Positions 3,119 through 8,584 of a stretch of 64,000 bases of DNA are shown in pieces. Source of the stretch: a plasmid; NCBI RefSeq assembly GCF_054482525.1, contig NZ_JBTHVG010000004.1, one strand, 5' to 3'. The stretch's first letter is position 1. Every line of letters starts with the position of its first letter. The notes beneath the pieces are model-generated. The model was not told where the DNA came from. It did no database searches and saw only the letters and a list, made by a program, of their open reading frames with translations. Position numbers and translations under genes: made by a program.

Positions 3119-3388
3119 TTACTTTTTCATGACCGAACCCGAAATTTTGCGCGTCAACAAGAGACGTTGTGTAAACTCAGTCCTTTTATCTGGCAGGTTA
3201 ACCCCTATCAATCTTAGGATGAAACCACGCCATCCTCTGTTTGCCTTGTTATTAATTTCATAAAGACGATTGTTTTCCTCTCGTAGTTTTGTCCACTCTA
3301 AACAAAGTGTTATATAATCCAGTTCTGTGATGTGTTTCACTTTTCCATTGACAGTTACAGTGTTTATTCCATTTCCTGTGATCATCAT
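3119..3388 (-). CDS. Hypothetical small protein, translationally coupled to upstream membrane protein gene
   Basis: 89 aa; start overlaps stop of 3385..3918 ORF. Confidence 0.35.
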   Translation of the reverse strand: MMITGNGINTVTVNGKVKHITELDYITLCLEWTKLREENNRLYEINNKANRGWRGFILRLIGVNLPDKRTEFTQRLLLTRKISGSVMKK

Positions 3389-3918
3389 CTTATGCCTTTT
3401 TTATCTTCATTTGGGACCGTGCTTTTCTTCGGAGTATCATTATTCGTTAACTGCTGTTTATCAATAAAATTCCTGATGTTATCAAGTGCTTCCTTTGTTT
3501 TTAGAATGCGCTTGATATCCATTTCATCCCGCCCGGTCATTCTTTTTCCGGACAAAAGACGCTCAAGAAGCTCCTGTTTCGCATCAGGAGAATCTTTGGC
3601 GAGATCCATCAGGTTAAGCAAATCTTCACGATCGAGAGGAAAGAAGTATTTTACAAAATACTTGAAAAGCGAAAGAAAGTAGTATGCTGTCCATGCAATA
3701 CAGAAACCGATTCTGAGAAACTCATTGTCAACTATACAGAAATACAGGTATATAATCAGGAGAATAGGTAAAATCCATAATACTATAGCTAAAAAAATAT
3801 ATACGGGGATCAGGCGTCTGTATGCCCGTTCATGTTTATTTAGGATGAATAAAATCTTCTCCGCTTCTGAATCACACATAACATTCTCTTCCCATTTTTT
3901 CTGATACGTAATGTCCAC
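3385..3918 (-). CDS. Hypothetical membrane protein (two predicted TM helices, charged C-terminal domain)
   Basis: 177 aa; hydrophobic stretch LIPVYIFLAIVLWILPILLIIYLYFCIV followed by second hydrophobic segment. Confidence 0.45.
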   Translation of the reverse strand: MDITYQKKWEENVMCDSEAEKILFILNKHERAYRRLIPVYIFLAIVLWILPILLIIYLYFCIVDNEFLRIGFCIAWTAYYFLSLFKYFVKYFFPLDREDLLNLMDLAKDSPDAKQELLERLLSGKRMTGRDEMDIKRILKTKEALDNIRNFIDKQQLTNNDTPKKSTVPNEDKKGIR

Positions 3919-3934: not shown

Positions 3935-4537
3935 TTATTGCCCAGAAATATTCTCCTGCTGTGCCTGCATCCTGAGCCACTTTTGTTCTAATGTCGCCAG
4001 TCTGCGACCGGCACTCTGTGCTTCAGAGTCTGAGACCTGCCCTTTGGGGTGACCATCCAGGCCATAACGTGGGACGCCGGCGACAGCTGTCCGCTGCAGA
4101 TATACGCGGCGGGATGTGATGCAGGACACTGCACAGAGCCATTCGTCCATGGTCAGTTCTGTCTCCGGGTGTTCTGCCAGAAATGCCGAAATATCATTGT
4201 TTATGCCAATTTTCAGGGGAATAAATCCACCACCTTCAGCACGAAGATGAGGAAACAGGGCCTTTATTTTTTCCACGCACTCGTGAGTATACTCACGGGT
4301 CCAGTGGGAGGGACGTGGAAAACGGTGTCTTTTCTTTTTCTTCTTCCTGGCTGGCGCTTCGGGGATATGTGTTTCGACGGCAGATGAATTTATTCCGGCG
4401 GGGGCTGATTCTGCCGTCTGTTCAGTAAATACAGGTGCGATAATATCTGTTTTTTCGGATAAGGACGGTGGCGAAAAAGTACGACGTTTTTTCACCACAA
4501 TGACGGGAGTTTTCCTTTCTTCCTGATATTTTCCCAT
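3935..4537 (-). CDS. finO: FinO/ProQ-family RNA chaperone-like protein
   Basis: 200 aa; Lys/Arg-rich N-terminal half and C-terminal region resembling FinO fold (..EWLCAVSCITSRRVYLQRTAVAGVPRYGLDG..). Confidence 0.6.
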   Translation of the reverse strand: MGKYQEERKTPVIVVKKRRTFSPPSLSEKTDIIAPVFTEQTAESAPAGINSSAVETHIPEAPARKKKKKRHRFPRPSHWTREYTHECVEKIKALFPHLRAEGGGFIPLKIGINNDISAFLAEHPETELTMDEWLCAVSCITSRRVYLQRTAVAGVPRYGLDGHPKGQVSDSEAQSAGRRLATLEQKWLRMQAQQENISGQ

Positions 4538-4712: not shown

Positions 4713-5765
4713 CTAAGGTTTGTTTTCTTCTTTTCTTATATTTATCTGGTAATCCTTATCAACAATGCCTGCTCTACTGTTTGCATTAATCATTGCTGGT
4801 CTGATCCATATTAGTTTGTTATTTTTCCTGCGAATATGTCCTCTGCGTAAGTGCATCCTTTTCGTCCCACCGGATTTTCCTGTTCCAGTATGATTACTTT
4901 GCACCTTAGTTTCAGACAGTTGCAATACTTTATAAGTATATGAAGGGCGCTTGTTTTTTTCAGGTGGCTGAACTTTACGACCATTTATGAATTTTCTTTC
5001 TGGTTTAGTGCTAAGTGTGACAGGACACACATTTTCGCAATTTAACACGCTACATGCCTGTATGAAAGCCTGTAGTTCATCGCGAGTATCCATAATAATT
5101 TGCGCATATAATCTTTCAATACTTCCCACCTGCTTTATCAAATCATCTTTAAATTCCATGCTTGTTATAAAAGGCTCTGCTTTGAAGTGTGCTGCATTAT
5201 ATTTGGCTACTCCATTCTCTTTTAATGTGTCGATTACAAGCCTGGATGCAGGCAATGTCCTGTCAGGTTCGTATTTAGTGAGTTTGTTGTTATATGGGAA
5301 AAACATTCCACCGACACCAAGAATCCATATTTTTAAATCATCAGACCATGAAACAGGAAGGATAAACACTCCGCCATCAATATAAGTGTTAAGGATTGAA
5401 TTACATCCCGGGATGGGTTCAAAACTCTGTCTGGCCTCCCAGCACAGGGCAATTCTTCTGGATGATGGTGATATATTAAAATCACCTATTTGGGTTTCTA
5501 CATTGTCTTTGAACCATGGTATTTCAAATGTTACAACTGGATATGGTAATCGTGCCAAATCGAAATGCGTCTGGCGGTATTCTTCTGGTTCAATAATATC
5601 GCAGCAGTTCGGTAAGATGAACTTAACACTACTGTCCAGCATATCAATGACCTGACGCATAATATATGATGTAAGAGGTGCATTTGACCTTAATCCTTTT
5701 TCCATGACAGACAGGTCTTTTATGGCTTCCTTAGTGTAATTTAGTGGAGTAATTGTATCTTTCAT
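4713..5765 (-). CDS. Hypothetical protein, AT-rich cargo; C-terminal basic motif shared with 39354..40445 product
   Basis: 350 aa; AT-rich relative to flanks; C-terminal TGKSGGTKRMHLRRGHIRRKNNKLIWIRP. Confidence 0.6.
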   Translation of the reverse strand: MKDTITPLNYTKEAIKDLSVMEKGLRSNAPLTSYIMRQVIDMLDSSVKFILPNCCDIIEPEEYRQTHFDLARLPYPVVTFEIPWFKDNVETQIGDFNISPSSRRIALCWEARQSFEPIPGCNSILNTYIDGGVFILPVSWSDDLKIWILGVGGMFFPYNNKLTKYEPDRTLPASRLVIDTLKENGVAKYNAAHFKAEPFITSMEFKDDLIKQVGSIERLYAQIIMDTRDELQAFIQACSVLNCENVCPVTLSTKPERKFINGRKVQPPEKNKRPSYTYKVLQLSETKVQSNHTGTGKSGGTKRMHLRRGHIRRKNNKLIWIRPAMINANSRAGIVDKDYQINIRKEENKP

Positions 5766-5977
5766 TACGTTTTCTCTGGATATCTGATTACTATACAGGT
5801 ACGGCTACTTACGTAGCTCTGCCACCAGAAATACTCAGCCAGTAGGTTCCTGGCTACGGCAGAAGATGTGTGGATTTAGCTCGTACACAGGAGGCTGTTA
5901 CAGGTATCCACGATACCTGAACTGACGATTATTCTTGGAAATAATCAGCCATCCGCGCCGCTTTACTCAGGCCCCCT

Positions 5978-6568
5978 TTACGGGACGCTACTTTCATTTA
6001 TCTGTACGCGAACCTCTATTCCTGCGTCATGACAGGCCTGCAGCCACTGCGCCACTTCCAGCGGATCGCCCTCCAGGCGTACCACCCTGCCTTCTTTATT
6101 CCATAACTGCAGACAGGTGCTGCCGTCGAGACGCACCACAAAATCCCCACGGCAGGCCTGATACGTTATGCCGTTCAGCTCCACCGCCAGATCAGTGGCA
6201 GAAGTGCCGTCTGCGGGCAGACCTGCTGCCGGGACCAGCGGCAGTACGACGACTTCTGCCGCACGCTGTTCTGCCCGGAGGCGGTCCTGTTCTGCCAGCA
6301 GCAGAGGCTGTGCCACGGCCCGGCCGGCGTCCGTCAGCTCCACTGCCAGCTGCAGGTTCGGAGCGCGCAGGGTACGCAGCCAGCCGGCATCCTCCAGACG
6401 ACGGCAGGAGGCGCGCAGGTTTGGCCCGTAGACCGGGGCTTCCCCGCTTCGCTCCAGCACCCGTTCTATGTCCCGCGTCAGCACGGGTCCCGGCCGTTTT
6501 TCATCAAGGGCAGCCAGCACAATCAGCACTCTCCGCTGCAGTGGCGACGGTCGGCGGCTCTGAGTCAT
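5978..6568 (-). CDS. Hypothetical protein with putative N-terminal winged-helix DNA-binding domain (GC-rich gene)
   Basis: 196 aa; start overlaps stop of 6568..6822 ORF; high GC; opposite-strand 255 aa ORF is Pro/Arg/Ala-rich and judged spurious. Confidence 0.5.
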   Translation of the reverse strand: MTQSRRPSPLQRRVLIVLAALDEKRPGPVLTRDIERVLERSGEAPVYGPNLRASCRRLEDAGWLRTLRAPNLQLAVELTDAGRAVAQPLLLAEQDRLRAEQRAAEVVVLPLVPAAGLPADGTSATDLAVELNGITYQACRGDFVVRLDGSTCLQLWNKEGRVVRLEGDPLEVAQWLQACHDAGIEVRVQINESSVP

Positions 6569-6822
6569 TAACTGTCACCCTCCGACCAGATGAGTTTTTT
6601 GAGGCGCTGATAATCGGTATCGATGCGTTCCCGGGCCTGTGCGTGATTGTTCTGTGGCGCACCATGAATGGCCAGTTCATACCACAACCACAGCAGAGCT
6701 GAGGCCCTCAGTTCATTGAGGCACCTGGCGCTCTGGCTGTCCAGCCCACATTCACGGATATTTTTTTCCGCTATTCGGGTCAACTGCTCATAGCTGAGTG
6801 AAAACACCCTTTCTTCATCCAT
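6568..6822 (-). CDS. Hypothetical small protein, first gene of a two-gene operon
   Basis: 84 aa; translationally coupled to downstream 196 aa gene; palindromic operator-like sequences just upstream. Confidence 0.45.
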   Translation of the reverse strand: MDEERVFSLSYEQLTRIAEKNIRECGLDSQSARCLNELRASALLWLWYELAIHGAPQNNHAQARERIDTDYQRLKKLIWSEGDS

Positions 6823-6865
6823 CCTGCATGCTCCATCTGATAATGTTCCGACAGCTAAAAATCAT

Positions 6866-6965
6866 ATCATGCATGATTTGTGTGCTCTTGATTTATGATA
6901 ATATCTGATATGGTTTTTTCATCAATGATGAAAATCATATCAGATATGATTTTATGTGTGTTTTT
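6866..6965. promoter_or_regulatory. Cluster of palindromes/inverted repeats (operator-like or recombination site)
   Basis: perfect palindrome atcatgcatgat; inverted repeats atatctgatat / atatcagatat; near-palindrome aaaatcatatcagatatgatttt. Confidence 0.4.
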
Positions 6966-7389
6966 TATTATCATATTATTTGCGTCTTTTCTGCCGCGCA
7001 GATCCGGTTTCCGGCGGTTACGGATCTCCCACTTCCCCCACACAACGCCACCTCCCGTCAGCACAACATGTGGTGCCTGATTCAGCTGCTGATGACACTA
7101 TATGTTGTGTCATCTCCCTGACCTGTGATGCGCCGCGCAGGGGCGGAAAACAGCGATATGATTATTTCCTCAGCGTGATACACTTCCGGAAAGTTGTGAT
7201 ATTCAGGAAAGTCGGATCTGACGGAAGCGGCTCTCCGGTAATTTAACGGCGTGGTTATATGGATGCTTGTTATCATGGTGATGATGATAACGGCATGATG
7301 TTATCAGACGGCGTGACGGTAAGGGCAGTGATGACGGATGACGTTATCGCATGACCGTCCCTGCCCGGAAAAGAAAAAAGGAGTCACCC

Positions 7390-7803
7390 ATGTTTTTTAT
7401 TGAGAATGAAGGTCAGGCTGTCGCCGGAACGGATTACTGGCAGTCTGTACAGGCGCAGGCCGGATATGTCTACCTCAGCTGGAATGCCGGCGCAGCCAGG
7501 CTGCTTGTCCCGGATGCGGCAAAACATTTACTCAGGGAGATGCGGGGGGCTGAGTACGTCATCATCAGTAAGGGAACGCTGGATGGCCGCGATGCGCTGG
7601 AACTGGTATTTGAAGACGGCAGCGATGCGCCGTTCGTGATCCACATGCTGAGTGAGCAGTGCGATCGCCTGCTCCCCGAAAACAACCAGGGCGGGGGTTT
7701 TGTTGTCACCGTCTGGACGCGTGGCGGTAACCAGCTCCGTTATCCGGGAAAGTACCGGGTTGTGGAAAAACTGCCCGACGTTTCCCCGTGGAGTGAACAC
7801 TGA
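7390..7803 (+). CDS. Hypothetical protein encoded immediately upstream of resD
   Basis: start chosen at Met14 of the track ORF, preceded by SD aaggag; stop lies 1 bp before the resD ATG. Confidence 0.5.
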   Translation: MFFIENEGQAVAGTDYWQSVQAQAGYVYLSWNAGAARLLVPDAAKHLLREMRGAEYVIISKGTLDGRDALELVFEDGSDAPFVIHMLSEQCDRLLPENNQGGGFVVTVWTRGGNQLRYPGKYRVVEKLPDVSPWSEH

Positions 7804-7804
7804 T

Positions 7805-8584
7805 ATGCAGCACCTGCCGGCACCGATCCACCATGCCCGGGATGCCGCTCAGCTTCCTGTTGCCATCGATTATCCGGCAGCGCTGGCACTCCGCCAGATG
7901 TCGATGGTTCATGATGAACTGCCAAAATACCTGCTGGCCCCTGAAGTGAGCGCCCTGCTCCATTACGTCCCGGATCTGCGCCGCAAGATGCTGCTGGCCA
8001 CACTGTGGAACACCGGTGCGCGCATTAATGAAGCACTGGCGCTGACGCGGGGGGATTTTTCGCTCACGCCTCCGTATCCGTTTGTGCAGCTGGCCACTCT
8101 GAAGCAGCGGACCGAAAAAGCCGCCAGGACGGCAGGAAGAATGCCCGCCGGTCAGCAGACTCACCGGCTGGTTCCGCTCTCCGACGCCTGGTACGTCAGC
8201 CAGCTGCAGACGATGGTGGCCACACTGAAAATCCCCATGGAACGGCGTAATAAACGAACAGGCAGGACAGAGAAAGCGCGGATCTGGGAAGTGACGGACA
8301 GAACGGTCAGGACCTGGATTGGGGAGGCGGTTGCCGCCGCTGCCGCTGATGGTGTGACGTTCTCTGTCCCGGTCACGCCACATACGTTCCGCCATTCCTA
8401 TGCGATGCATATGCTGTATGCCGGTATACCGCTGAAGGTCCTGCAGAGTCTGATGGGGCATAAGTCCATCAGCTCAACGGAGGTCTACACGAAGGTGTTT
8501 GCACTGGATGTGGCTGCACGGCACCGGGTGCAGTTTTCGATGCCTGAGTCCGATGCGGTGTCTATGCTCAAAAGAATTCCATAA
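7805..8584 (+). CDS. resD: Site-specific tyrosine recombinase ResD (plasmid multimer resolution)
   Basis: start at internal Met (MQHLPAP...) of the track ORF; near-identical over most of its length to the F-plasmid ResD sequence as I recall it; C-terminal ..HTFRHSYA..LMGH.S...YT tyrosine-recombinase motifs. Confidence 0.85.
   Translation: MQHLPAPIHHARDAAQLPVAIDYPAALALRQMSMVHDELPKYLLAPEVSALLHYVPDLRRKMLLATLWNTGARINEALALTRGDFSLTPPYPFVQLATLKQRTEKAARTAGRMPAGQQTHRLVPLSDAWYVSQLQTMVATLKIPMERRNKRTGRTEKARIWEVTDRTVRTWIGEAVAAAAADGVTFSVPVTPHTFRHSYAMHMLYAGIPLKVLQSLMGHKSISSTEVYTKVFALDVAARHRVQFSMPESDAVSMLKRIP

Follow-up and report, generated by a model that had tools for sequence, protein, structure and literature searches.

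Do the palindromes in front of a small plasmid operon serve the operon itself, as an operator, or do they serve the recombinase ResD encoded nearby? Both possibilities had been raised in a first-pass annotation of the locus, which consists of two small genes, here called ydfA and ydeA, in a plasmid sequence of 64,000 nucleotides (the window, i.e., the whole stretch of DNA that was analyzed). We establish the gene structure and coupling, the predicted fold, the conservation of the operators, and the boundaries of the module. The answer that we favor, with some confidence, is that YdeA auto-represses the ydfA-ydeA operon from three operators within a module bounded by recombination.

Plasmid context and base composition

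Positions 5700-7400 of plasmid unnamed1 of E. coli YL03 (NZ_CP093549.1), a conjugative IncI-gamma/K1 (IncI-complex) plasmid, have the same sequence as this region, and the window likewise belongs to the IncI complex. Both genes are labeled hypothetical proteins by RefSeq in NZ_CP093549.1, and ydeA is labeled hypothetical everywhere. The names used here follow the R64 nomenclature and were taken from the source names of homologues and from one annotated plasmid. In a 2026 GWAS on IncK2 plasmids (PMC12987596), a plasmid gene “ydeA” was read as the chromosomal L-arabinose exporter YdeA; if this is the same gene as the R64-type ydeA, the function given there is a name collision.

Table 1. Positions of genes, domains, and candidate regulatory and recombination sites in the window
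Feature	Position	Strand	Description
Two small genes at the operon end	3119-3385 and 3385-3879	-	
FinO/ProQ-family gene (fopA)	3935-4537	-	
350-aa gene	4713-5765	-	Downstream of ydeA
ydeA	5978-6568	-	ORF, 196 aa
YdeA C-terminal domain, residues ~126-196	5981-6192	-	Beta-rich, conserved
YdeA residues 1-104	6257-6568	-	Winged helix-turn-helix (wHTH) and long helix (predicted structure)
ydfA	6568-6822	-	ORF, 84 aa
Shine-Dalgarno GGAG	6831-6834	-	8 nt before the ydfA ATG (read from the sequence)
Candidate operator O3	6859-6879		0 mismatches; in the 5' UTR, centre ~+22
Candidate operator O2	6896-6916		4/14 mismatches here; overlaps the -10, ~-15
Predicted sigma-70 promoter	6898-6925	-	-35 TTGATG (6925-6920), 16-nt spacer, -10 TATTAT (6903-6898)
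Candidate operator O1	6932-6952		0 mismatches; upstream of the -35, centre ~-51
Extra half-site-like block ATTATCATAT (coding strand ATATGATAAT)	6966-6975		Conserved; between O1 and the recombination core
rfsF-like core AGATCCG-N14-CGGATCT, AGATCCGGTTTCCGGCGGTTACGGATCT	7000-7027		Inverted repeat; beyond the end (6965) of the region first annotated
137-aa gene	7390-7803	+	
Tyrosine recombinase gene, ResD type	7805-8584	+	parA next on the plus strand

The two translationally coupled genes that had been noted, of 84 and 196 aa, are both present as ORFs (Table 1). The ydfA stop codon TAA (6570-6568) and the ydeA start codon ATG (6568-6566) share one base in the sequence TAATG (6566-6570), and a stop-start overlap or close abutment is also found in most of the other loci examined. 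A further ORF of 58-65 aa (6867-7064, minus strand) runs across operators and promoter and is annotated as a CDS in AP024477.1 (record 6871-7047); it is probably no real gene. On the other side of the intergenic region, the 137-aa gene directly precedes resD, its stop lying 2 nt ahead of the resD start, and in F-type plasmids and pO113 its place is filled by ccdA-ccdB.

The two genes had also been described as much more GC-rich than the surrounding plasmid, which was taken to suggest a separate origin. This holds for ydeA (64.1% GC, GC3 66.5%) but not for ydfA, which at 51.8% is close to the window mean of 51.1%. The promoter region (6823-7015) has a GC content of 34.7% and the downstream 350-aa gene one of 38.0%. 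Homologues of ydeA have 59-72% GC (GC3 60-82%) in every lineage examined, regardless of context; their GC content is high even though the flanking plasmid DNA has 45-54% GC and the lineages are dS ~1 apart (loci L006 and L010-L024). As to separate origin, the unit from 5978 to 7015 is indeed bounded by recombination (see below), but its GC-rich part is ydeA only. What is movable and of unusual composition is the AT-rich cargo that lies downstream.

Three candidate operators around the predicted promoter

The cluster of perfect palindromes reported upstream of ydfA is real. It comprises ATCATGCATGAT at 6866-6877, ATATCTGATAT at 6901-6911, and ATATCAGATAT at 6937-6947, the last within a perfect 23-bp palindrome (11+1+11) at 6931-6953, and a further 19-bp palindrome (9+1+9) is found at 6916-6934. 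Among 2000 dinucleotide-type shuffles of 6823-7015, the longest arm was reached in one and the count of arms of at least 6 in four. Taken together, the palindromes are parts of three 21-bp sites of the pattern AAATCAT-N7-ATGATTT, with centres 36 and 37 bp apart. Two of these, 73 bp apart, are exact in all 14 specified bases, and no other site with up to two mismatches occurs elsewhere in the 64-kb window.

The sites were footprinted across 18 loci covering IncI, IncF(K), IncHI2, and other replicons and at least 10 genera. O3 has two mismatches or fewer in 15 of the 18, at a fixed position, and its arms carry 1.64 bits against 0.65 bits in the spacer; O1 does so in 12 (arms 1.61 bits, spacer 1.01 bits). 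O2 is degenerate in this plasmid and is a good site in several other lineages, and its spacer owes its conservation to the TG-n-TATGAT -10 element, which falls at the same position. Counted from the ydfA ATG, the sites fall near -131, -95, and -58 across loci, while their spacers vary, and the operator positions are kept in ~17 loci from other Enterobacterales. Upstream of the most divergent homologues, which lie on short contigs, no palindromes were found. The Shine-Dalgarno sequence is part of a strongly conserved translation-initiation block in the 18-locus alignment.

The predicted promoter is the only promoter-like site on the coding strand and would start transcription at about 6891. This agrees with an independent BProm prediction for a related plasmid, where the transcription start was placed 69 nt before the ydfA ATG (PMC12111858). 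In most other lineages the -10 element is TATGAT preceded by TG, and the -35 hexamer is poorly conserved between lineages.

A reading of the palindromes as RNA hairpins was rejected. The changes in the operator arms are not compensatory in the 18-locus comparison, the 5' UTR folds no more stably than shuffled sequences (z +0.67), and Rfam contains no family matching the palindrome region, which together points to a protein-binding DNA site. Such a pattern is what is expected of DNA sites to which a dimeric protein binds. As they bracket or overlap the predicted promoter and are phylogenetically footprinted, the comparison gives good support to the proposal that they form the operator of the operon. 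Bound by a wHTH protein, such repeats might instead make up a partition centromere or replication iterons, which we consider extremely improbable given that the module has no NTPase partner and that the sites overlap the promoter predicted to drive ydfA-ydeA. Separate ParA and ParM systems, as well as a RepA replicon, are also present already at other places on the plasmid.

A separate rfsF-like core bounds the module

In a megablast of the intergenic region against other plasmids, two classes of matches were obtained, which meet at ~7015-7017. Matches to 6823-7015 go with ydfA/ydeA, even where other genes follow (e.g., in pR17.4111_p113k). Those from 7017 on go with resD, including thousands of F-type plasmids, and the sequence to the right of ~7017 matches the region found upstream of ccdA-ccdB-resD in IncFIA plasmids. 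The homology switch between plasmids falls inside the central 14 bp of the rfsF-like core. The IncFIA plasmid examined has this core and the resD-side sequence, and is without the AAATCAT palindromes and ydfA/ydeA.

According to a published description, rfsF consists of imperfect inverted repeats that flank a short spacer (PMC5587640), which fits 7000-7027. IncI1 plasmids carry rfsF at the matching position (PMC8004404) and swap the “Delta” and “Col” gene sets there (PMC8004404, PMC9412624). The features expected of rfsF, namely imperfect repeats of 10-14 bp, a spacer of 6-8 bp, a link to resD, and crossovers inside the site, are found at 7000-7027 and not at the palindromes. The suggestion that the palindromes are the ResD resolution site thus finds no support, as they segregate with ydfA rather than with resD and a separate core is present. 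On these alignments, the core marks where the module ends on its outer side and does not belong to the operator. Another half-site-like CGGATCT is found ~190 bp farther right (7213-7219), in a segment that F-type plasmids also have.

Homology to an R64-type plasmid (88.6%) extends exactly from 5978, the ydeA stop codon, to 7015. Judged by these comparisons, 5978-7015 is one conserved, recombination-bounded plasmid module.

The palindrome array could still take part in recombination, either as a ResD/rfsF site or as accessory architecture that is bound by YdeA or ResD and gives selectivity. It lies 50-140 bp from the rfsF-like core. In nearly all loci the ydfA-side core arm and ~40 bp beside it remain attached to the module, at a fixed distance from O1 and even where the flank contains no resD. 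The regular spacing of 36-37 bp may be likened to that of accessory sites in other resolution systems, such as Xer/cer and Tn3 res. However, the array moves with ydfA, IncFIA ccdAB-resD plasmids have the core and the resD-side sequence but neither palindromes nor ydfA/ydeA, AAATCAT is unlike the core arms AGATCCG, and roughly half the loci lack a resD within 5-6 kb. We therefore hold a role of the array in ResD recombination to be very improbable and retain the operator reading.

YdeA, YdfA, and the assignment of the sites

The winged-helix-like N-terminus claimed for the 196-aa protein was confirmed on the predicted structure. An AlphaFold2 model of YdeA (mean pLDDT 85.4, from a 17-sequence alignment) has a wHTH made up of helices 9-24, 31-40, and 48-60 and wing strands 64-68 and 74-78, followed by a long helix (residues 80-104) that is probably a dimerisation helix. 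A linker of variable length (~105-125), with a low-confidence stretch at ~111-126 in the model, leads to a compact C-terminal domain (127-190 in the model) in which five strands are followed by a helix and one more strand. Foldseek matched YdeA to DNA-bound MarR-family structures, e.g., 8ylg and 5h3r, with probability 1.0, and in a profile search of the PDB the MarR proteins come first (E 0.004-0.06); the single sequence had no PDB match.

YdeA falls below the curated threshold of every wHTH family model in Pfam and NCBIfam, and no MarR, PadR, or HxlR model of these libraries was found at E up to 0.1. The best sub-threshold matches were AbiEi_4 for YdeA (E 0.034) and PaaX for its relatives (E 0.007). 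PHROGs returned one unnamed phage family (phrog_19460, E 4.7e-7), and a PADLOC scan gave no match above threshold. The C-terminal domain, which the first-pass annotation could not assign, is identified by no library and has no fold match in the whole-protein searches, all of which are dominated by the wHTH; sequence search detected no WYL/WCX domain in YdeA.

Residues 1-88 of YdeA are nearly invariant between genera, while homologues range from 169 to 214 aa through linker deletions and a 7-residue duplication. Tandem repeats were considered as the source of this linker polymorphism, and none were found in the ydeA gene. The dN/dS of ydeA (0.22-0.41) indicates purifying selection. Long forms of YdeA (321-419 aa) occur in Buttiauxella, Citrobacter, Enterobacter, and Superficieibacter (L010 6001-7197, L012 5989-7248, and L013 5989-7209, as well as L011, L015, and L016). 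Their extension is a conserved additional C-terminal region of 130-220 residues that matches no family and of which no relic is present in the window; the 196-aa YdeA may be a shortened version of the long form.

For YdfA, a model of fused YdfA-YdeA predicts a three-helix bundle (helices 11-24, 33-54, and 57-78). This prediction, in which YdfA and YdeA were joined by a linker, reached a pTM of 0.45 and held no usable interface information. The N-terminal motif MDxExxFSLSYEQLT is conserved, and a YdfA-like gene stands immediately upstream of ydeA in ~17 of 18 loci. YdfA had no match in Pfam, NCBIfam, PADLOC, PHROGs, or, as a single sequence, the PDB; its profile found nothing meaningful in the PDB, and no relatives were detectable beyond its own family. 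ydfA is under purifying selection (dN/dS 0.38-0.51), and YdfA identity between loci is 33-60%. Between this plasmid and the R64-type and pO113-type plasmids (L003 and L008), YdfA amino-acid identity is 56-59%, and dS is 0.77 for ydfA versus 0.07-0.09 for ydeA, which indicates that ydfA alleles have been swapped within the module independently of ydeA.

The obvious candidate binder is YdeA, since its DNA-binding domain is near-invariant, like the half-sites, and YdfA is not. The operators may also be real but bound by YdfA or a host factor, with the wHTH of YdeA targeting other DNA, RNA, or protein. The assignment of the sites to YdeA is indirect, and the small helical YdfA always accompanies them. 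Yet YdfA alleles diverge while the half-sites are constant, profile searches relate YdfA to no DNA-binding family, and YdeA holds the only recognizable DNA-binding fold in the conserved module. We regard binding by YdfA or a host factor as unlikely, and infer that the sites are bound by YdeA, with repression as the result.

A narrow but very common family

A tblastn search of 72,556 plasmid records found YdeA in at least 5,000, nearly all from Escherichia, Klebsiella, and Salmonella. Among the carriers are resistance plasmids of the IncI1, IncK, and IncF types from E. coli and Salmonella, and the large Klebsiella plasmids of type FIB/FII. An exhaustive HMMER search of 1.84 billion cluster representatives recovered 220 YdeA clusters at 50% identity, many of them fragments, and a scan of one genome per species found 19 loci, essentially all in Enterobacterales. 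The family is narrow but extremely common.

Two small coupled genes behind a palindrome-rich plasmid promoter, a weak match to an antitoxin-type wHTH (AbiEi_4), and a position among stability functions (the RelE/ParE pair, resD, and parA) would also suit a toxin-antitoxin addiction module with the palindromes as its autoregulatory operator. However, searches of Pfam, NCBIfam, and PADLOC found no toxin or antitoxin family for either protein, and an AbiEii-type nucleotidyltransferase partner is absent. An IncHI2 plasmid (L007) keeps ydfA, with ydeA there in fragments, and Tn21 insertions in ydfA have been reported (PMC9412624), so that loss of either gene appears to be tolerated. Many natural ydeA variants also have large linker deletions. 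An addiction module is therefore improbable, and we continue with YdeA as an autorepressor.

Cargo genes and transcription

The genes that follow the module differ between plasmids. In this plasmid a 350-aa PF26125-family protein comes first, followed by FopA and two small proteins. R64-type plasmids have the 518-aa AAA ATPase IbfA (abortive infection) and then FopA, and the FIB/FII plasmids of Klebsiella encode a 164-aa “DNA-binding protein” together with membrane proteins and a Hha-domain protein. The 350-aa gene (38% GC) fills the slot of ibfA in R64-type plasmids and is a candidate defense or other accessory cargo gene. Its product had no match in PADLOC or the local Pfam copy, and its homologues carry PF26125 in precomputed annotation. 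These homologues are widespread in Enterobacterales and are found in Ralstonia and Methylibium as well; some of the contigs that carry them are very large. The last small gene (3119-3385) encodes 88 aa, and ~60% identical homologues end the operons of Klebsiella, Pluralibacter, and Enterobacter (L006 2358-2612, L022 7400-7600, and L024 6622-6822), with different genes in between.

In pUA1135, RT-PCR placed ydfA, ydeA, ibfA, and the proQ-like gene on one transcript, and ibfA leads to abortive infection of a P22-like phage (PMC12111858). In addition, a separate promoter is predicted there for ibfA, and a clone of ibfA by itself is functional (PMC12111858), and thus control of the cargo by the ydfA promoter may be partial. 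FopA binds the Inc/repZ RNAs of the IncI replicon (PMC7491321). We found no functional study of ydfA or ydeA in the literature; the published data found on them are the co-transcription and predicted promoter above (PMC12111858) and detection by qRT-PCR in pS88. Both outcomes that were to count against the first interpretation, palindromes serving solely as a ResD site and an operon of known role, were looked for, and neither was found.

Proposed mechanism

In the mechanism that we propose, the promoter of the module carries the three 21-bp palindromic operators at even intervals, and ydfA and ydeA lie behind it. YdeA, a MarR/PadR-like winged-helix protein, would dimerise via its long helix, and the dimer would bind AAATCAT-N7-ATGATTT at O1 upstream of the -35, at O2 over the -10, and at O3 in the 5' UTR, repressing transcription of its own operon. 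Read-through from the ydfA promoter would reach the downstream cargo, so that the module would set the expression level of the accessory genes. The input side would probably be the conserved C-terminal domain of YdeA together with the co-translated YdfA, as a ligand or partner modulating DNA binding.

A broader reading, which we put forward as doubtful, is that YdfA-YdeA is a widespread two-protein sensor/repressor switch that silences costly, variable cargo until a trigger arrives, for instance phage infection or entry into a new host. The cargo would be IbfA, the PF26125 protein, FopA as a replication-control RNA chaperone, and Hha-type silencers. ResD exchange at the abutting rfsF would move such “regulated cargo slots” among IncI, IncF, IncHI2, and Klebsiella plasmids, and YdfA, whose alleles are shuffled independently of ydeA, would be the specificity or sensing subunit.

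The interest of the module lies mainly in its very wide distribution and its link to phage-defense and replication-control cargo. If YdeA represses the operon, it would control traits that affect phage typing and phage therapy, with a possible effect on plasmid copy-number control via FopA (PMC7491321). The operator consensus and exact module boundaries make the autorepression idea directly testable, and the separation of the operator from the rfsF site helps the annotation of IncI plasmids.

Comparison with known systems

ydfA and ydeA have so far been known as conserved hypotheticals, and their operator, fold, and module structure appear not to have been described before. The predicted mechanism of autorepression is of a familiar kind. 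With the MarR/PadR autorepressors (MarR-marO, LmrR/PadR), YdeA shares the winged helix-turn-helix fold of its predicted structure. Unlike them, it passes no MarR or PadR family model, has an additional beta-rich C-terminal domain of ~70 residues on a variable linker, and always has a small coupled gene ahead of its own, with three operators in a 36-37-bp phase.

YdeA also resembles AbiEi, a type IV antitoxin and autoregulator, in its size of ~200 aa, its N-terminal wHTH and C-terminal domain, its two-gene operon, its phage-defense neighborhood in some plasmids, and the weak AbiEi_4 match below threshold. Its partner, however, is an upstream 84-aa helical protein rather than a downstream AbiEii nucleotidyltransferase, and no nucleotidyltransferase gene lies directly downstream of ydeA; this position is occupied by the PF26125 gene here, by that of the AAA ATPase in R64-type plasmids, and by different genes in Klebsiella.

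Like the wHTH-WYL regulators BrxR and CapW, YdeA heads an operon with abortive-infection cargo (ibfA, in R64-type plasmids) and has a sensory-looking C-terminal domain, but no WYL or WCX domain was detected in it by sequence and the cargo is not always defensive (FopA here, Hha in Klebsiella). The rfsF/ResD system of the F plasmid, finally, has its counterpart in 7000-7027 and the sequence to its right, which are homologous to the region upstream of ccdAB-resD (IncFIA), whereas the palindromes, absent from the IncFIA plasmid examined, are a different element.
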